A DNA stretch of 64,000 bases. Source: Trueperaceae bacterium. GTDB lineage: Bacteria; Deinococcota; Deinococci; Deinococcales; Trueperaceae. The translations under genes were made by a program, and so were the position numbers. The stretch's first letter is position 1. Every line of letters starts with the position of its first letter. A model generated the notes under the pieces. That model saw only the letters and a list, made by a program, of their open reading frames with translations. It searched no databases and was not told where the DNA came from. Location of the stretch: positions 3,712,001-3,776,000 of the forward strand of contig OZ243927.1 in NCBI GenBank assembly GCA_965213925.1. The letters are read 5' to 3'. Below are positions 4,357 to 49,353 of the stretch, piece after piece.

Positions 4357-4389
4357 TTTGGTCAAGAAGAGCGGGGCTCGAGGTGCTTA

Positions 4390-4465
4390 GCAGGTATCAT
4401 CTGGTCAGTTACACTCCCACTGTAAAGAACATTATTTAGCACGCACATTCAGAGATGATACCTGT
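4390..4465 (+). mobile_element. ~76-bp MITE/REP-like palindromic element, copy A
   Basis: gcaggtatcatctggtca...acgcacattcagagatgatacctgt. Closely similar to copies at 9055, 41019 and 49278. Confidence 0.8.
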
Positions 4466-6255: not shown

Positions 6256-6313
6256 GCAGGACTTCGTACATCGTGACCCGATACTATTTGCTATGACACC
6301 AGATGCTACCTGC
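6256..6313 (-). mobile_element. Degenerate or partial copy of the 76-bp element
   Basis: Reverse complement reads gcaggtagcatctggt...cctgc. Confidence 0.5.
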
Positions 6314-6397
6314 TATAACCTAGCAAATCTCAGGGATTCTAACATGCGTTGCCGAAAGGATGCACGCTGAGATGTCTGTACGAGCAATCCGCGCCGT

Positions 6398-8058: not shown

Positions 8059-9065
8059 GCTGCCTCCATGAGTCCGCCCCAGGTGATGACGCTGGACGCC
8101 CAGGTTAAGCCTGCCCCGAACGCGACCAAGAGCAACTTGTCGCCATCTCGGATGCGCCCGTGGTCCAGTGCGTGTTTGAGCGCCAAAGGAATACTCGCCG
8201 TCGAAACGTTGCCGTACTCGTCCACCGTCACGACGACGCGCTCTTCCGGGAGTTCTAAACGCTCCCGAGCCGCTTTGATAATGCGCAAGTTCGCCTGATG
8301 CGGCACGAAGAGTGAAATGTCGTCCGGCGTGAGCCCCGCCTTTTCGATGGCGTCCAGTGAAGCGCTTTGCATAATGCGCACCGCGAACTTAAAGACTTCG
8401 TGCCCGTTCTGGTAAATTTTGTCCGTTATCTTTGTGCCGTCCGGTAAGCAGGGCGCAACCGCTTTCGAGTGTAAGAACTTACCGCCCGAACCGTCCGCGC
8501 CCAAGACAAAGGAGGAAAACCCATAAGGCTCCGGCACCGCTTCGACGATGGCTGCGCCCGCCGCGTCGCCGAAAAGAACCGCCGTGCTGCGGTCTTCCCA
8601 GTCCAAGATTTTAGTGAGCGCCTCCGCGCCGATGGCTAAGACTTTCTTGCAGATGCCCGCCTCGACGTAACCCTTCGCCACTGAAAGCGCATAAATCCAA
8701 CCCGGACACGCCGCCAAGAGGTCGAACGCGCCTGCGTCCAAATTAAAATGCTCTTGCACGATAGACGCCGTAGACGGAAAGAGCGCGTCGGGCGTGTTCG
8801 TCGCGACGATGACCATGTCCACGCCCTCCAAGCTCGCCGCGCCGTGCCGGCAGCGCAAATCTTCGACGCTTCTCATCGCCAGGTGAGAGGTGAACTCCTG
8901 ATCCGCCGCGATGTGCCGCCGCTTGATGCCTGTGCGCGTGGTAATCCACTCGTCAGAGGTGTCCATCATGGCTTCTAGGTCTCTATTACTGAGGATTTTC
9001 TCAGGGGCGTACGCGCCTAACGCACTGATGCCAGCACGCGCCTTACCGTCAGTCGCAGGTATCAT
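8055..9065 (-). CDS. fabH: 3-oxoacyl-ACP synthase III
   Basis: AAC, HQAN, YGNVSTASIP and FGAGLTW motifs. Confidence 0.95.
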   Translation of the reverse strand: MIPATDGKARAGISALGAYAPEKILSNRDLEAMMDTSDEWITTRTGIKRRHIAADQEFTSHLAMRSVEDLRCRHGAASLEGVDMVIVATNTPDALFPSTASIVQEHFNLDAGAFDLLAACPGWIYALSVAKGYVEAGICKKVLAIGAEALTKILDWEDRSTAVLFGDAAGAAIVEAVPEPYGFSSFVLGADGSGGKFLHSKAVAPCLPDGTKITDKIYQNGHEVFKFAVRIMQSASLDAIEKAGLTPDDISLFVPHQANLRIIKAARERLELPEERVVVTVDEYGNVSTASIPLALKHALDHGRIRDGDKLLLVAFGAGLTWASSVITWGGLMEAA

Positions 9066-9127
9066 CTGGTTTGCGTCAATTTCACGAGGTCAACCATTAA
9101 CGAGTACGCACGTTCAGAGATACCTGC
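9055..9127 (+). mobile_element. 76-bp element copy B (3-nt deletion), overlapping the fabH start
   Basis: gcaggtatcatctggt...gagtacgcacgttcagagatacctgc. Confidence 0.75.
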
Positions 9128-9364
9128 GTGATTCAATACCAGCATTTCTGGGAACTGCTCTAAATGGGTCACGAAATCACGTCCGCTCGGTCTAAGATAG
9201 GGCATGTTATACCAAACTGGTTTGAGTATGTCACTCATACGCTGCATCTGATGACATTTGTACCCTACGCATAAGGAGTTCAAAGGTTCAAGTTCTTATA
9301 GAAGTGGCTGCGTTCGGTGCTTATCGGTGTGGTAGGAATACGGACACAGGCAGCCGAAAGAATC

Positions 9365-26816: not shown

Positions 26817-26904
26817 ATGCGCTAGGTTGCTAAGTGCGTGTGGGTCTGCACTTGGGTATCACCTCACAGGTAATTTGCGGGCGAGATGATACCGCCAGGT
26901 TCCT

Positions 26905-27729: not shown

Positions 27730-30700
27730 ATGGCGAACCCCTCCCCCACCTCCAAAACACAGTTTGCCCACCTCCACCAGCACACCGCCTATAGCCTCCT
27801 AGACGGCGCGGCGCGCATCAAAGACCTCATGAAGTGGGTCAAAGAGGTCTCGCCCGAGAACCCTGTTCTGGCGATGACCGACCACGGCAACATGCACGGC
27901 GCGGTGGAGTTCTATAAAGCGGCGGAAAAAGAGGGTGTCAAGCCGATTTTAGGCTTCGAGGCGTACGTGACGGCGGGCTCTCGTTTTGAAAAGAAAAAGC
28001 CGAGTTCAAAGTTAGACGGTGGCTACTTTCACCTCACCTTGTTGGCAAAGAACTTTACGGGCTACCAGAACCTCTGCAAACTGAATTCGCGTGGCTGGCT
28101 CGAGGGCTTCTACATGAAACCCCGCGTAGACCACGAGCTTTTGCGCGAATACTCAGAAGGCGTCATCGCCATGTCGGGCTGCTTGGGGGCGCAGATACCT
28201 AGAAACCTCTTAGATTTAGGACCCGAGCAGGGCGAAGCGGTCTTGCAGCAATATCTGGACATTTACGGTGAGAACTTCTTTATCGAGTTGCAGAACCACG
28301 TGCCAGAGCGCGCCGAGGACATGGACTCGAGCCTCCGCGACTTAGCCGAGCAGCAGACGCGCCTTAACCCGATGCTTAAAAGTTTGGCGAATAAGTACGG
28401 GCTGGGCATGGTCGCCACCAACGACGGGCACTACGTCAAGAAAGAGGACGCCAAAGCGCACGAAGCGCTCTTAGCGATTCAGACGAAGACGACTCTGTCC
28501 GACCCCGGACGCTTCAAGTTTCCCTGCGACGAGTTCTACGTTAAGACGCCCGAAGAGATGGCGCGGGCGATCCCTGAAGACGAGTATCCGAGCGCGTTAG
28601 CTAACAGCATGAACGTCGCGGACCTCTGCGACGTGACGCTGCCGATTGGCTCCAAGCGCGTCTACCAGATGCCCGAGCTGCCGATTCCGGCAGGGCGGAC
28701 GCTCGCCGAGCAGCTCAGGGTACAGACATACGAAGGCTTGACCACGCGCTACGAAGAGATTACCGAAGACCTCTACCGCGACTATTTAGCGTGCTCGGGC
28801 GAGAGTGTGCCGAGTGAGGCGGAAGCGGTCTACCTCAAGCTGGCGCAAGTCGGGGAAAGAGGTCGGACGCCGAAAGAAGAGGGGCAGAACTTCGACACGT
28901 TCGCGTATCCTTGTCTAAAGGCATTTAGAGAACAAGGCACGGCGAGCGAAGAGGCGCTCTTGATTCTCGAGCGCGCCGAATTCGAACTCGGTGTAATTAT
29001 CGCGATGGGCTTTCCCGACTACTTTTTGATCGTCGCGGACTTCATCAACTGGGCGAAGGACCACGGCATCGCGGTCGGACCAGGGCGCGGCTCGGGGGCG
29101 GGCTCCATCGTCGCCTTTGCGACGCGTATCACCGACATCGATCCCTTGGAGTTCGACCTCTTGTTCGAGCGCTTTTTGAACCCCGATAGGGTCTCCATGC
29201 CCGACTTCGACGTGGACTTCTCCGACACGCGGCGCATGGAGGTCGTGGACTATGTGCGGCGAAAGTACGGCGAGGAGAAGGTCGCGCAGATCGCCACCTT
29301 CGGGACGATGGCGTCCAAAGCGGCGATTCGGGATGCGGCGCGAGTGTTAGAAGCGCCTTATGCCGACGCCGACGCGGTCTCGAAACTCATCCCCGTTGTG
29401 TTCGGACGCTCCACGCCGATAGCCAGGGCGATGGATGAAGTTACCGAGATCAAGCAGCTCTACGACAACGGTGCGAAGGAGTTCGTGGACGTCGCGATGA
29501 GTTTGGAGGGCTTGACGCGCCACGCCTCGGTGCACGCGGCGGGCGTCATCATCGCCCGCGAGCCCGTGCAAGAACTCGCGCCCGTCTTTCGCAGCGGCGA
29601 CGGTCCCATCGTCTGTCAGTACGACATGGGCTCGGTGGAGGACTTGGGTTTTATCAAGATGGACTTTTTGGGCCTCAGGACGCTCTCCTTTATCGAGGCG
29701 GCGATTCGCATTGTCAAGGAGTCGCGCGGGGTGGAACTCGACCCGGACGCGTTCCCGAAAGACGACGAGAAGACGTTTGGGCTCCTCTCGAGGGGCGAAG
29801 CCGCCGGCGTCTTCCAGTTCGAGTCGCCCGGCATGGTCGATACGCTCAAAAAGCTCAAGCCGCGCCGCGTCCAAGACCTCATCGCGGTCTCGGCACTCTA
29901 CCGCCCCGGTCCGATGGAGAACATCCCGACCTACATCCGGCGGCACCACGGCGCGGACAATCCGGACTTTTCCGAGGACCCCTACGCGGAGTTTCCCGAG
30001 TCGCGACAGTATTTAGAGTCCATCTTAGAAGAGACCTACGGCATCCCTGTCTATCAAGAACAGATCATGCAGATCGCTCAAGCCGTGGCGGGCTACTCTT
30101 TGGGCGAAGCCGACCTCTTGCGGCGGGCGATGGGTAAGAAAAAAGTCGAGGAGATGGAAAAGCAGCGCAAAATCTTTTTAGAGGGTGCGAAGGCGAAGGG
30201 TATCCCTAAAGATGAAGCGAGCCGCATCTTCGACCTCTTGGAGAAGTTCGCGAACTACGGCTTTAACAAGTGCGTCGTGGGCGAGACGCTCATCCCGGAC
30301 GCACAGACGGGGCAGCTTCACACTGCCGCAGACCTCTTTAGTGAACACCACCGACCTGAAGTCGTGAGCGTTCAAGAGGACTTCAGTCTGACGCAGAGTA
30401 AAACGGTGCAGACGATGCAAAACGGTGTTAAACCCGTTTACACCCTCACCACCTCTTTGGGCAAAGAGATTATAGCGACGGGCAACCATCCGTTTAGAAC
30501 GCTGGACGGCTGGAAGAACTTAGAAGATTTGCGCGTAGGCGAGCGCGTCGCGTCGCCCGCGCACCTGTCTGTGGCGGGGCAAGAGGTCTGGGACGCGCAC
30601 AAGCTCATCACGCTGGGTTGGACGCTCGCGGAGGGTAACACGTGTCATCCATGTGGCGTTTACCTCTACAGCAACAACGAGGCTACCGTGGCGGATATGG

Positions 30701-32856
30701 TGAGCGCGGCTGAGCAGTTTGAAAACACCGCGCCTACCGTCAAGCAGCGTCCCGAACGCAGCGATACCTTCGACGTCTACTTGGGAACGGGCAAACGTGG
30801 TTCAGCCAGCGGCGGACGTTCGGGCGCGCGGCTGTGGTTAGAGACGCTCGGCGTCATCGGGCAAGGTGCAGCGGAAAAACGCTTTCCCGAAGAGGTCTTC
30901 CGCCTCACGAACGACAGCTTAGCCCTCTTGCTCGGGCGCTACTGGTCAGGGGACGGGTTCGTTTTCGGACAGGGGAACACGACACCTTACGCCGCGACCT
31001 CTTCAAAAGAACTCGCACGGCAACTTCAACACCTCCTGCTCCGCTTCGGCGTCGTCAGCCGCCTCGCAGAAAAGACGTTCGCGTATAAAGACGGGCGAAC
31101 AGGGTACACCGTTCACGCGCTAGGTAGGCGCAGTGTTGAGCGGTTTGTTGCGTACATCGCGCCGCATCTAGTCGGCAAAGACTCGCAGCTTAGCTGCTTA
31201 AAAGATTACCTGGGGCACACCCCCACCGACAGGGAGAGTGTGGACACCTTGCCGCCCGAAGTCAAAGGTTGGGTCAAGGAGGTCAAGGAACAGAGCCGTT
31301 TGACCTGGCGTGAGGTTGAAGCGCAGAGCGGCGTGTGCGTTAAGGAGCTATACGGCGATACGAAGGCGCATAAGAAGGGCTTCCGGCGCAGCACGGTTCG
31401 CAAGCTCGCTGAGTTCTTCGGTTCTGAGAGGTTGCGTCAGGCGTGCAGCAAAGACCTCTTTTGGGAGCGCGTCGAATCTATTGAACCCGCAGGTGAGGCG
31501 ATGACTTACGACCTGGAGGTTGCGCACACGCACAACTTCGTCGCCAACGACCTCTTGGTGCATAACTCGCACTCCGCCGCTTACGGCGCACTCTCCTACC
31601 AAACCGCCTACCTAAAAGCGCACTATCCCTTGGAGTTCGTCGCCGCCCTCTTAACCGTCGAACGTGGCAACTCGGACAAGGTCGCCGAATACATCACCGA
31701 CGCGCGCTATCTGGGGCTCGAGGTCTTGCCCCCCGACGTCAATGAGTCCAGAAGCGACTTTACGCCCGTGGATGAGGTCATCCGCTTCGGGCTTTACGGC
31801 ATCAAAAACGTGGGAGACGCGGCTGTTGAACACATCCTAGACGAGCGCGACAAGGGCGGGAAGTTTAGAGACCTTTACGACTTCTGCAAACGGGTGGACT
31901 CGTCGCTAGTGAATAAGCGGGCGCTGGAGCACCTCGTCAAAGCGGGCGCGTTCGACGAACTCGGCAACCGGAGCGACCTTTTGGCGAACTTAGAGCCCGC
32001 GATGAAGTGGGGCGCGGCGCAGCGCGAGCAAGCGGCGGCGGGGCAGTTCGGGCTCTTCGGCGCGGAGGAGACGAAGCCGCCTACGCCGACGAAAGTTAAG
32101 GAACATTCGAAATTAGAACTGCTCCGCTTCGAGAAAGAGGCGTTAGGGCTCTATATCTCAGATCACCCTATGAACTCCTACCCTGGTCTCACCGACGCCG
32201 CGAACTGCACGGTTGCCAAGATTGACGCTTGCTACAAGGAGCTGATGAAACGCGCGAGCGACCCCCGCCAGCGCATTGCCCTAGCGGGCATCTTGCAAAA
32301 CGTCGTCAAAAAACCGACTAAAAAGGGCACGATGATGGCGCGCTTCGAAATCGCTGACGAAACAGGCAGCCGCGAAGTGGTCGCCTTTAGCCGCACCTAT
32401 GAAGAGATCGCGGACAAACTCCAAGAGGACGCGCCCGTGGTGCTCATCGTGGAGGTTTCGAAAGACCGGGACGGCGAATCGGTGCGTATCGTGGCAGATA
32501 GGCTCATTCGCTGGGAGGAGCGCGGCGACTTGCCCGAGGTGGCGATTGCGAGCTTTGACCTCGGCGACGTGGACGAAACGCTCCTCACAGATTTTCGCTC
32601 GCACGTGGACGAGTTCGCCGGGAGGACGCCGCTGCGCCTCAAAGTGAGGTCGCCAAGAGGCGTCGCTACGTACGCGACGGAGAATATCCGAGTGGATAAG
32701 GAACGCCTCAAAGACCTAGAGCGCACCTGTCCGTGGCTCAAGACCACCGTGACCTTAGACCGAGACGGCTTGCTCCGTGCGCCTGTCAACCGTTACGGAA
32801 GGGGTGTCAAGCAAGATGATGGGAACGGTTTCAAGTCGGTAGAGGTGCCGTTTTAA
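27730..32856 (+). CDS. dnaE: DNA polymerase III alpha subunit (intein-containing)
   Basis: PHP motif HLHQHT; GRGSGAGS, PDFDVDF and KMDFLGL motifs; C-terminal OB fold. Confidence 0.97.
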   Translation: MANPSPTSKTQFAHLHQHTAYSLLDGAARIKDLMKWVKEVSPENPVLAMTDHGNMHGAVEFYKAAEKEGVKPILGFEAYVTAGSRFEKKKPSSKLDGGYFHLTLLAKNFTGYQNLCKLNSRGWLEGFYMKPRVDHELLREYSEGVIAMSGCLGAQIPRNLLDLGPEQGEAVLQQYLDIYGENFFIELQNHVPERAEDMDSSLRDLAEQQTRLNPMLKSLANKYGLGMVATNDGHYVKKEDAKAHEALLAIQTKTTLSDPGRFKFPCDEFYVKTPEEMARAIPEDEYPSALANSMNVADLCDVTLPIGSKRVYQMPELPIPAGRTLAEQLRVQTYEGLTTRYEEITEDLYRDYLACSGESVPSEAEAVYLKLAQVGERGRTPKEEGQNFDTFAYPCLKAFREQGTASEEALLILERAEFELGVIIAMGFPDYFLIVADFINWAKDHGIAVGPGRGSGAGSIVAFATRITDIDPLEFDLLFERFLNPDRVSMPDFDVDFSDTRRMEVVDYVRRKYGEEKVAQIATFGTMASKAAIRDAARVLEAPYADADAVSKLIPVVFGRSTPIARAMDEVTEIKQLYDNGAKEFVDVAMSLEGLTRHASVHAAGVIIAREPVQELAPVFRSGDGPIVCQYDMGSVEDLGFIKMDFLGLRTLSFIEAAIRIVKESRGVELDPDAFPKDDEKTFGLLSRGEAAGVFQFESPGMVDTLKKLKPRRVQDLIAVSALYRPGPMENIPTYIRRHHGADNPDFSEDPYAEFPESRQYLESILEETYGIPVYQEQIMQIAQAVAGYSLGEADLLRRAMGKKKVEEMEKQRKIFLEGAKAKGIPKDEASRIFDLLEKFANYGFNKCVVGETLIPDAQTGQLHTAADLFSEHHRPEVVSVQEDFSLTQSKTVQTMQNGVKPVYTLTTSLGKEIIATGNHPFRTLDGWKNLEDLRVGERVASPAHLSVAGQEVWDAHKLITLGWTLAEGNTCHPCGVYLYSNNEATVADMVSAAEQFENTAPTVKQRPERSDTFDVYLGTGKRGSASGGRSGARLWLETLGVIGQGAAEKRFPEEVFRLTNDSLALLLGRYWSGDGFVFGQGNTTPYAATSSKELARQLQHLLLRFGVVSRLAEKTFAYKDGRTGYTVHALGRRSVERFVAYIAPHLVGKDSQLSCLKDYLGHTPTDRESVDTLPPEVKGWVKEVKEQSRLTWREVEAQSGVCVKELYGDTKAHKKGFRRSTVRKLAEFFGSERLRQACSKDLFWERVESIEPAGEAMTYDLEVAHTHNFVANDLLVHNSHSAAYGALSYQTAYLKAHYPLEFVAALLTVERGNSDKVAEYITDARYLGLEVLPPDVNESRSDFTPVDEVIRFGLYGIKNVGDAAVEHILDERDKGGKFRDLYDFCKRVDSSLVNKRALEHLVKAGAFDELGNRSDLLANLEPAMKWGAAQREQAAAGQFGLFGAEETKPPTPTKVKEHSKLELLRFEKEALGLYISDHPMNSYPGLTDAANCTVAKIDACYKELMKRASDPRQRIALAGILQNVVKKPTKKGTMMARFEIADETGSREVVAFSRTYEEIADKLQEDAPVVLIVEVSKDRDGESVRIVADRLIRWEERGDLPEVAIASFDLGDVDETLLTDFRSHVDEFAGRTPLRLKVRSPRGVATYATENIRVDKERLKDLERTCPWLKTTVTLDRDGLLRAPVNRYGRGVKQDDGNGFKSVEVPF
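30271..31566 (+). mobile_element. DnaE intein (432 aa) with LAGLIDADG homing endonuclease
   Basis: YGFNK|CVVGET...ATGNHPF...LGWTLAEG...LGRYWSGDG...HNFVANDLLVHN|SHSAAY. Confidence 0.95.
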
Positions 32857-41018: not shown

Positions 41019-41095
41019 GCGAGATTTCATCTCTGAATGTGCGTACTCACCGATGTTCTTTTCAGTGAGGTCGTTTGTGACCAGATGATACCTGC
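41019..41095 (-). mobile_element. 76-bp element copy C
   Basis: Reverse complement gcaggtatcatctggtcac...gagtacgcacattcagagatgaaatctcgc. It begins at the stop codon of the adjacent gene. Confidence 0.8.
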
Positions 41096-41568
41096 TAGTT
41101 ACGCTGCGCCAACTGCACCGATACGTCTGGGCTAGTCCGCTCTAACTGCGCTAACATCTCGGGGTTGTCAGCGACCTCTTCTAACATCTCGCCCAAGGTC
41201 ATGGCGTCGTCGCGGTCTACGTCGTCAATATCTAGGTAGATGGAGTTCTTGCTCGAGCCGCCGGAGAACGTTTCGACGGTATAGACCTCGCCGTCAATCT
41301 CTATGGTGACGTACTTGACGGTTTCGTCGTCTTCACCTGTACCGACGAGTCTCTTGGCGACGGCTCCGTCGCCCATCTCCGCTGTGGCGAGCATGTTGCC
41401 GAACTCGGCGGGGTCGCCGTCATAGAGCGTGACGGTGGCGAAGTCGCTGGGGTTGCCGGGCGAGAAGACGAAATTTTGCACAGTGTCTTGTGCAGTGTTT
41501 TGTGCGGTGGCAACGCCTCCTACGAGAACGGCTCCAGCTAAGGTGAGGGCTAGGGTGGCTCTTCTCAT
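41095..41568 (-). CDS. Secreted acidic hypothetical protein
   Basis: Signal peptide MRRATLALTLAGAVLVGGVATA; divergent from the two-component system. Confidence 0.75.
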   Translation of the reverse strand: MRRATLALTLAGAVLVGGVATAQNTAQDTVQNFVFSPGNPSDFATVTLYDGDPAEFGNMLATAEMGDGAVAKRLVGTGEDDETVKYVTIEIDGEVYTVETFSGGSSKNSIYLDIDDVDRDDAMTLGEMLEEVADNPEMLAQLERTSPDVSVQLAQRN

Positions 41569-41866
41569 GATCTCTTCCTTTCTCAAGCGGCTCTATTTCA
41601 TTTCGTTCTGTACCGCTTGTTATGCTCTACATCATGCTCGCGCCGCAGCAAGAGACCGTTCAGAGAAGGTGAACGTTTGGTGAACCTTGTGCTTCGTGCG
41701 AAACTTCGAGCGTTTACACCTCGCACACGGCGAAAGAAGAGGTTCGCGTGGCTGTAAAATCGGTTAAAAAGCCACTGATCTTTGCGAAATCTTGATACTT
41801 ACTGCCTAACTTCGCTCTATGAATGCACTGACGAAACCCCGAACGAAACCGCGTACAATGGGCGCT

Positions 41867-44858: not shown

Positions 44859-45099
44859 CTTCTGAACGCGGGGACACTCATCACGTTGCGCCGCAACTTT
44901 CATGCTTTCAGGATGAGCGCCGACTCTATAGATGCGGCTAAAGGTTCGTCAAGATTCGCACAAGAGGTGTGGCGGCACCGTTCCGGCGAACCTTCGCGGC
45001 GCCTCGAGGCTTGCAAGAAGCGCTTAGAATGTCGCGGCGGGGTTTGAGGCGCAGCGCGCAGCTACACGGCGCAGGGTTTCACGTGCTACAATCATCTCT

Positions 45100-45574
45100 T
45101 GCGGTGAGAGGAACCTGGTCGCGGCCTTGCCGGGCAACTGGCTTGGCTGAGGAAAGTCCGGGCTCCGCAGGGCAGGGTGCCAGGTAACGCCTGGGCGTGT
45201 AAGGCGACGGCAAGTGCAGCAGAAAGGAAACAGCTTGGAGGTATCATCTTCGAACAGACGCAACGGGCGTCATTAGCGTGACAAGCCAGCGTCGTAGTAG
45301 GTGATGATACCTCCAAGCTACGTTGAAACGGTGCGGTAAGAGCGCACCAGTGCCCTTGGCAACAAGGGCAGCTAGGTAAACCCCACCCGGTGCAAGGTCC
45401 GATAGGGAGAAAGAGCTTGCCCGGCTCGCTAACATCTCCGGGTTGACCGCTCGAGGCGCTTGGCGACAAGCGTCCCAGATAGATGACCAGGCAGCTCCGC
45501 GAGGTTCATCTCAGAGCGATGCTCTATAGATGCGACTAGGAGTGAACAGGACCCGGCTTATCACCTCTCCCGCA
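45100..45574 (+). ncRNA. rnpB: RNase P RNA (type A) with extended P12 and P19
   Basis: GAGGAAAGTCCGGGCTCC, AGTGCAGCAGAAAG, GGTGCGGTAAGAGCGCACC, GGTAAACCCCACCCGGTGCAAGG and AACAGGACCCGGCTTAT. TACAAT upstream. Confidence 0.95.
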
Positions 45575-45584
45575 CTATCTTTTT

Positions 45585-45618
45585 AGACAGGCGCTACACT
45601 GCGCCTGTCTTTCTTTTT
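45585..45618 (+). terminator. rnpB terminator
   Basis: agacaggcgc-tacact-gcgcctgtct followed by ttcttttt. Confidence 0.85.
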
Positions 45619-45897
45619 GAGGTCCTTCTAAAAGTTGACCGAACAATGTAAAAAATTTTACATCGGCTTAGGTCTTGGTTGTGTGAGTCGGTATTCTCGC
45701 ACCGAGGGGTCGCGGTGGGTGGAACGGGGGGAGCGGGTGGGGAAGAGCCAACTTAGAGCCGACTACGTTCCAGAGAAACCCCGTGCTAGACTATAAAAAG
45801 CTACCTTTTCACGGCGCACTACCCCCTTCCCACTCGCGCTGCCCGAAGCTTCCAAGTGGAGCGCAGGTGGGAGAAAAACTAGAAAACAGGCGCAACA

Positions 45898-49230: not shown

Positions 49231-49277
49231 AGGTATAGTGTCCTCTATGGGTCAGAACGTGATACAGCATACGAACA

Positions 49278-49353
49278 GCAGGTATCATCTGGTCAAATAC
49301 GCTCTTAGTTTAGAAGGGCTTGATCAGAACGCACGTTCGGAGATGATGCTTGC
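49278..49353 (+). mobile_element. 76-bp element copy D
   Basis: gcaggtatcatctggtca...aacgcacgttcggagatgatgcttgc. Confidence 0.75.

Follow-up and report, generated by a model that had tools for sequence, protein, structure and literature searches.

Repeats inside RNA genes are already known. A close case is that of the STRR repeats, which reportedly lie inside rnpB, the gene for RNase P RNA, in heterocystous cyanobacteria; Vioque (1997) reportedly located them in helix P12, with activity retained. This helix is directed away from the catalytic core, and changes in its length are tolerated. Correia, ERIC and REP/BIME sequences are bacterial MITEs or small intergenic palindromic repeats. For Rickettsia felis, one source (PMC1166351) counts 728 Rickettsia palindromic elements (RPEs), 85 of them within ORFs and 3 in RNA-coding genes, a precedent for palindromic repeats inside RNA genes. 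A second source (PMC4264200) treats P3, P12, P15-17, and P19 of RNase P RNA as not alignable. The literature searched on this theme contained no report for the Trueperaceae, nor one of a palindromic element in rnpB.

Here we describe an rnpB gene in a 64,000-nt stretch of Trueperaceae DNA, the whole of which is called the window below. Its P12 helix is long and shares part of its stem with a family of 76-nt repeats dispersed in the same window, and the distal part of the helix may have been captured from a repeat of this kind.

An RNase P RNA with a lengthened P12 helix

The only Rfam matches in the 64-kb window are rnpB and two tRNAs. In a cmscan alignment the gene (Table 1) scores 259.9 bits against RF00010, for which the gathering score is 100, and its conserved core includes both strands of P4 (GAGGAAAGUCCGGGC on the 5' side and ACCCGGCUUA on the 3' side) as well as the J11/12 and J12/13 modules. 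Two large insertions distinguish it from the family consensus, one of 64 nt in the P12 apex and one of 38 nt at 45507-45544. Private substitutions, at columns invariant across the other 12 Trueperaceae-like sequences, number four (45198, 45219, 45323, and 45550), and the other 12 have between 0 and 15 private changes each. Judged in this way, rnpB appears otherwise normal and the RNase P RNA is presumably functional. The dcw cluster begins 445 nt 3' of the gene, with mraZ, rsmH, a PBP gene (ftsI-like), and murF.

Two of the private changes flank P12 directly, namely 45219 (A>G in J11/12) and 45323 (G>T in J12/13), while that at 45550 is an A>G change in the 3' strand of P4.

The insertion at 45507-45544 sits between the 3' strands of P2 and P4, a position that we take to be helix P19, and the inserts of relatives at this position differ in length and sequence. 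It contains a 13-mer, CTCTATAGATGCG, with a second site at 44924-44936, within the promoter region of a divergent gene encoding 371 aa and at a distance of 175 nt upstream from rnpB. We considered this 13-mer as a meaningful repeat and rejected it, as the similarity hardly continues on either side and a pair of such sites is nothing out of the ordinary.

The P12 segment, delimited by the conserved ...AC and TGAAAC, comprises 91 nt (45232-45322) and folds as a single long hairpin (-41.5 kcal/mol, z = -6.95). Its stem had been described as perfect over 17 bp, and so it is, with 45232-45248 paired to 45303-45319. The element had been placed at 45237-45314, a range that takes in the inner 12 bp of this stem and the interior; the full stem spans 45232-45319. 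The 5' arm is composite: its first 7 nt (AGCTTGG) align to the P12 base of relatives (compared with L012 and L001), while its last 10 nt are the terminal repeat of the 76-nt element. On the 3' arm, GATGATACCT (45303-45312) is the right terminal repeat of the same element. Folded alone, the P12 interior has a structure that is not unusual (z = -1.35).

Table 1. Positions in the window of rnpB, its P12 helix, and the dispersed repeats
Feature	Position	Strand	Context or basis
rnpB, bacterial type A RNase P RNA, full length	45102-45576	+	RF00010, model positions 1-367, not truncated
Extended -10-like sequence, TGCTACAAT	just upstream of rnpB		sequence reading
Terminator-like hairpin followed by T tract	45585-45610	+	directly 3' of rnpB
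Second lineage-specific rnpB insertion, 38 nt	45507-45544	+	insert columns in cmscan alignment
Helix P12 with base	45230-45322	+	cmscan alignment and regex extraction
P12 5' arm of perfect 17-bp stem, AGCTTGGAGGTATCATC	45232-45248	+	
P12 3' arm of 17-bp stem, GATGATACCTCCAAGCT	45303-45319	+	
P12 interior, 54 nt	45249-45302	+	no detectable similarity to element interiors
Element copy 1	4389-4464	+	between convergent FAA-hydrolase-like and fabF-like genes
Element copy 2	9054-9129	+	upstream of fabH-like gene; right repeat lacks 3 nt
Element copy 3	41022-41097	-	right repeat degenerate
Element copy 4	49277-49352	+	ftsI-murF spacer
Left-end element fragment	6275-6317	-	fabG-acpP spacer; nhmmer E = 0.012; covariance model 15.0 bits
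Mini-hairpin, 39 nt, with element-like arms	26855-26893	-	tRNA-Cys/tRNA-Val spacer

A family of foldback repeats between genes

The 76-nt element is represented in the window by four full copies, one fragment, and one mini-hairpin, all of them intergenic (Table 1). Only the copy at 4389-4464 retains a perfect 12-bp terminal inverted repeat (CAGGTATCATCT/AGATGATACCTG); the right repeat has decayed in three of the four full copies, and in that at 49277-49352 two transitions in the right repeat preserve G-U pairs on the + strand. All four copies keep the subterminal motifs, invariant or nearly so, which are TGGT on the left (as TGGTCA or TGGTTT) and ACGCACRTTCRGAG on the right. Their interiors are mutually related, with global alignment scores of 2 to 27 versus -7 to -13 for reverse-complement controls. 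In the copy at 41022-41097, the conserved left edge (TAGCAGG) includes the stop codon TAG (41095-41097) of an ORF on the - strand (41095-41586).

The family has some of the features by which MITEs are recognized, being short, bounded by terminal inverted repeats, and present in several dispersed copies within 64 kb. Read at their borders, the four copies show no direct repeat that could be a target-site duplication, and an element copy found no match in a plasmid collection. Among 33 different ORFs scanned (8 against NCBIfam and 26 against Pfam, one of them against both), none encodes a transposase; the scan took in only a minority of the ORFs after 50.7 kb.

One copy lies in the ftsI-murF spacer, which is 162 nt long in the window. 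The corresponding spacers of seven Trueperaceae loci (49-150 nt) lack the element, but as these loci belong to different genera they are not true empty sites. The spacers of several relatives (L002-L006 and L008) carry a repeated TGTGTAAGATGTGTA-like motif, which may be an operator or an extended -10 promoter; the motif is not clear in the element-bearing spacer of the window.

The mini-hairpin is located in the spacer between tRNA-Cys(GCA) and tRNA-Val(GAC) (26817-26904). On the - strand its arms read GGTATCATCTC ... GAGGTGATACC, and they enclose a 17-nt interior unrelated to that of the element. Of the two strands, the tRNA strand gives the better fold (13-bp stem, z = -3.5, versus z = -2.4 for the + strand), the better pairing coming through a G-U pair, and the predicted fold suggests an RNA-level role in the tRNA precursor. 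As the same arms here enclose another interior, foldback variants with different interiors exist. Elsewhere in the window, an intein interrupts the gene for DNA polymerase III alpha (27730-32856) and includes a LAGLIDADG domain (Pfam Intein_splicing and LAGLIDADG_3).

P12 compared with the repeats

The original prediction equated the inner P12 stem with the terminal inverted repeat of the element, and the two do agree: ten consecutive P12 pairs, AGGTATCATC/GATGATACCT, are identical to it, with one extra base on the left. The exact overlap is AGGTATCATCT on the left (11 nt) and GATGATACCT on the right (10 nt). P12 contains 10 of the 12 pairs of the element repeat, on both arms, and these are stacked directly on the seven basal pairs; the next pair outward from the shared block reads G-C in P12 versus C-G in the element. 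The similar length that had been noted also stands up, as from the first to the last shared base there are 74 nt in P12 and 72, 69, 72, and 72 nt in the four copies, a range of 69-72 nt.

Inside the stem the agreement ends. The P12 interior shows no similarity to the element interiors in either orientation, with global alignment scores of -6 to -13, like those of reverse-complement controls, and shuffle p values of 0.21-0.90. Both subterminal motifs of the element (TGGT.. on the left and ACGCACRTTCRGAG on the right) are absent from P12. The interior had been called diverged, with the case resting on the ends and the length, and this is an accurate description, since the interior is at shuffle level and only stem and span match. 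The start of P12 had also been said to resemble the reverse complement of the right end of the element. Set against the right subterminal region in reverse complement, the 5' inner flank of P12 agrees in 6-8 of 14 positions for each copy (29/56 summed), for which shuffling gives p = 0.018 with the best of four configurations taken into account; the other P12 arm, in the same reverse orientation, matches at only 7/56. The resemblance is real but weak and one-sided.

Different statistics answer differently whether the stem match exceeds chance. The window has only 16 perfect inverted repeats with arms of 10 bp or more and a spacer of 20-90 nt; two of them are elements, and P12 is the longest. 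The chance of a 10-pair match to the 12-bp repeat among the 14 non-element stems is 39 x 3 x 4^-10 = 1.1e-4, a figure of about 1e-4 that is weakened because the match was noticed on reading the window, after the fact. The 9-mer GGTATCATC has nine exact sites in the window (five in elements, two in P12, and one in the mini-hairpin) and a single site in 285 kb of DNA from relatives.

Models of the family give a different picture. An HMM built from the four copies recognizes only the family, and in an nhmmer search of the window it scores P12 at 4.0 bits (E = 2.8 on both strands). A covariance model with a 12-bp end stem, which is soft because it was built from only four sequences, gives P12 15.7 bits (E about 0.05, a rough value) with the interior skipped, and P12 is its top hit in the window apart from the four element copies. 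In 285 kb of DNA from relatives without the element family, the same model reaches 16.1, 15.0, and 14.8 bits, and the best of these background hits is an ordinary hairpin in a coding region (L004, 4594-4661). Because generic GC-rich hairpins in relatives score like P12, the covariance-model score does not discriminate. A background score for P12 with a model of the intergenic copies had been named as a result that would speak against the idea, and this is essentially what both models give (E = 2.8 for the HMM; 15.7 bits versus up to 16.1 for the covariance model). Exact-match and model statistics thus disagree, and the evidence that the match between P12 and the element is more than chance appears real but thin.

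P12 in related genomes

Relatives of the gene were retrieved with a translated antisense open frame of the 3' half of rnpB, which gave 21 loci among the matches listed; 13 of these (L001-L013) are Trueperaceae- or Deinococcota-like. The relatives' DNA totals 285,043 bases, with 2.6-20 kb per genome, and all of it comes from metagenome-assembled genomes. Full-length rnpB is present in 15/15 loci scanned by cmscan. The order rnpB-mraZ-rsmH-ftsI-murF is kept in nine loci among the matches listed, where protein identities are 46-75% (56-63% for RsmH); with protein identities only this high, the listed relatives belong to other genera, and no true empty site was seen among them. The closest rnpB core among the matches listed is that of L007, with 87.8% identity over 319 ungapped columns. 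In the rnpB tree L012, which is 80.6% identical to the window overall, groups with the window and L007 (support 0.76).

Of the 21 listed loci, 20 yielded a P12 segment. It measures 17-49 nt in 18 of these 20, versus 91 nt in the window, and the two remaining relatives have long, unrelated P12 segments (L004, 83 nt; L007, 102 nt). No other helix in the family set varies as much in length as P12 (17-102 nt). Nothing related to the distal P12 of the window was found in 20/20 P12 segments or in 15/15 aligned rnpB sequences among the matches listed. An antisense-ORF search of a protein collection returned seven relatives, and none of the seven has the segment that P12 encodes in the window. The 76-nt element family likewise has no copy in the 285,043 bases of relatives' DNA, by HMM or covariance model. 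The same P12 in relatives without the family had been named as a result that would speak against the idea; the idea survives this check, as these element-free relatives do not share the P12 of the window (20/20 segments unrelated). As no relative among those listed has this distal P12 or the element, both novelties, extension and repeat family, are peculiar to this lineage.

The base of the helix has a different distribution. L012, with a P12 of only 34 nt, has the unusual P12 base of the window (ACAGC...ACG), and because a short P12 shares this base, the 74-nt block looks like an addition to seven basal pairs that appear ancestral.

The two other long P12 helices have features of their own. 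That of L007 (600-701, - strand, 102 nt) holds GATAAACCCCGA twice in direct orientation, separated by 33 nt, with no further copies in the 6.3 kb available from L007, and one of the seven proteins (P0001) resembles the L007-type P12 and is apparently its antisense translation. That of L004 (10169-10251, - strand, 83 nt) is strongly structured (z = -4.15). Searches of their own loci (20 kb for L004 and 6.3 kb for L007) for repeats matching these P12 inserts returned only chance 11-16-mers. Across the other 20 genomes no stem is common to P12 and a dispersed repeat, although with only 2.6-20 kb per genome this is a weak comparison. One further locus, L009, comes from a contig titled Vicinamibacterales, yet it carries a Trueperaceae-type rnpB whose P12 shares 89.8% identity with the P12 of L002; the label may be a binning or labelling error.

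Possible origins of the P12 extension

We tentatively favor, at slightly less than an even chance, the reading that the P12 extension is a captured foldback repeat that shares its terminal inverted repeat with the 76-nt family. According to this model, a lineage-specific extension of about 74 nt would have taken the place of the apical part of P12, arriving either as an insertion at the apex or through recombination with an element copy. Because P12 points outward and tolerates length changes, an insert at this site would prolong the coaxial stack and be carried along as a passenger. Both arms would then be held fixed by selection against breaks in the helix, leaving 17 perfect pairs, and the unconstrained interior may have diverged past recognition, or may have come from a subfamily with another interior. 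We infer the capture event and its direction from the stem identity, the span, and the lineage restriction observed above. That both the extension and the family are restricted to this lineage is what capture would predict, but two independent novelties in one lineage would give it too.

The earlier claim, that a dispersed element appears to form P12, is partly supported: the 10-bp stem identity, the span, and the lineage restriction speak for it, and the interior, the subterminal motifs, and the model scores speak against it.

It is also quite possible, though somewhat less likely than capture, that P12 grew independently and that the 10-bp identity and similar span are a chance match noticed afterwards. 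The family set offers precedents for such growth, since P12 ranges over 17-102 nt and the long versions in L004 and L007 are unrelated; as these show no link to the element family, a long P12 needs no such element. The lack of similarity between the P12 interior and the element is in line with this account, as are HMM and covariance-model scores at background. Moreover, exact 11-13-mer matches of P12 inserts to unrelated DNA are common at this database size, and P12 is held not to be alignable between lineages (PMC4264200). Chance must, however, also supply a 10-bp match at the equivalent place of a hairpin (about 1e-4 among the 14 other long hairpins), a span that agrees within 2-5 nt, and a 9-mer, GGTATCATC, that is almost confined to the family and P12.

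An unlikely third possibility is that a host factor recognizes the GGUAUCAUC/GAUGAUACC helix as an RNA (or DNA) module, which P12, the tRNA-Cys/tRNA-Val spacer, and intergenic transcripts would each have recruited separately. Such a module would account for the same arms enclosing three unrelated interiors (elements, tRNA spacer, and P12), and it fits a family for which neither a transposase nor a target duplication was seen in the window. Two observations on pairing also point this way: a G-U pair gives the spacer hairpin its better pairing on the transcribed strand, and the copy at 49277 keeps its stem via two G-U pairs on the strand of the flanking genes. Yet no candidate binding protein or known RNA family fits (Rfam, window), the decay of three of the four intergenic right arms argues against strong selection on the helix, and the sample consists of only six hairpins. 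A bolder form of this idea, which we consider very improbable, is that the GGUAUCAUC/GAUGAUACC hairpin would be a functional RNA module common to P12, the pre-tRNA spacer, and the transcribed repeats, a palindrome domesticated by P12 or mimicking it. If true, the module would link RNase P, tRNA substrates, and a repeat family via a common binding partner or processing step.

We give marginally less credence still to the reverse direction, in which the dispersed family would descend from a copied rnpB P12 hairpin. It would explain the shared stem and span, but nothing further, and because relatives lack both the family and the extension, the phylogeny cannot give a direction. The four copies, however, share interior and subterminal motifs with one another and not with P12, they agree on C-G where P12 has G-C, and no other rnpB sequence flanks any element copy. 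An origin of the family from P12, which the original prediction had offered as an alternative, finds no support in copies whose interiors and motifs are not P12-like.

Least credible is an assembly artifact in which repeat reads were collapsed into rnpB. The relatives are all metagenome-assembled, the source may be too, and repeats can mislead assemblers. Against this, the stem continues without a mismatch through seven further pairs of rnpB-specific sequence, and the rest of the gene is intact, with only four private changes. We reject the artifact because the P12 interior is not element sequence.

Comparison with known systems

Capture of a foldback repeat, the reading that we tentatively prefer, would have its nearest counterpart in the cyanobacterial STRR, which are likewise dispersed genomic repeats inside an RNase P RNA gene. 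STRR, however, are tandem heptamer arrays, whereas P12 of the window is a single foldback hairpin in another phylum, of which only the stem matches the repeat; Tandem Repeats Finder returned 0 rows for tandem repeats at 45000-45700.

The RPEs resemble the putative captured block in being small palindromic repeats that invade both coding and non-coding regions and are tolerated in permissive parts of the product. They belong to an unrelated taxon and bear no sequence relation to the P12 block. Furthermore, RPE copies in genes are recognized by full-length HMMs, while the P12 block is missed by the HMM of its putative family.

Like the Correia, ERIC, and REP/BIME repeats, the family in the window is small (~76 nt), bounded by terminal inverted repeats, dispersed, intergenic, and hairpin-folding. 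It differs from MITEs in having no visible target-site duplication, parent IS, or transposase, and its mobility is putative.

On a weak comparison, the lengthened P12 also differs from ordinary variation in P12 length, as the other 20 P12 helices share no stem with a dispersed repeat in the available DNA. If the match is nevertheless coincidental, the P12 of the window would be an ordinary lineage-specific extension. If capture is true, mobile or selfish DNA would have given an essential ribozyme new structure outside the cyanobacteria and Rickettsia, and stem pairing would have frozen the ends of the insert while its interior was erased. As P12 has independently reached 83, 91, and 102 nt with unrelated sequences in one family, the helix is a recurrent landing or growth site, comparable in this respect to the expansion segments of rRNA.
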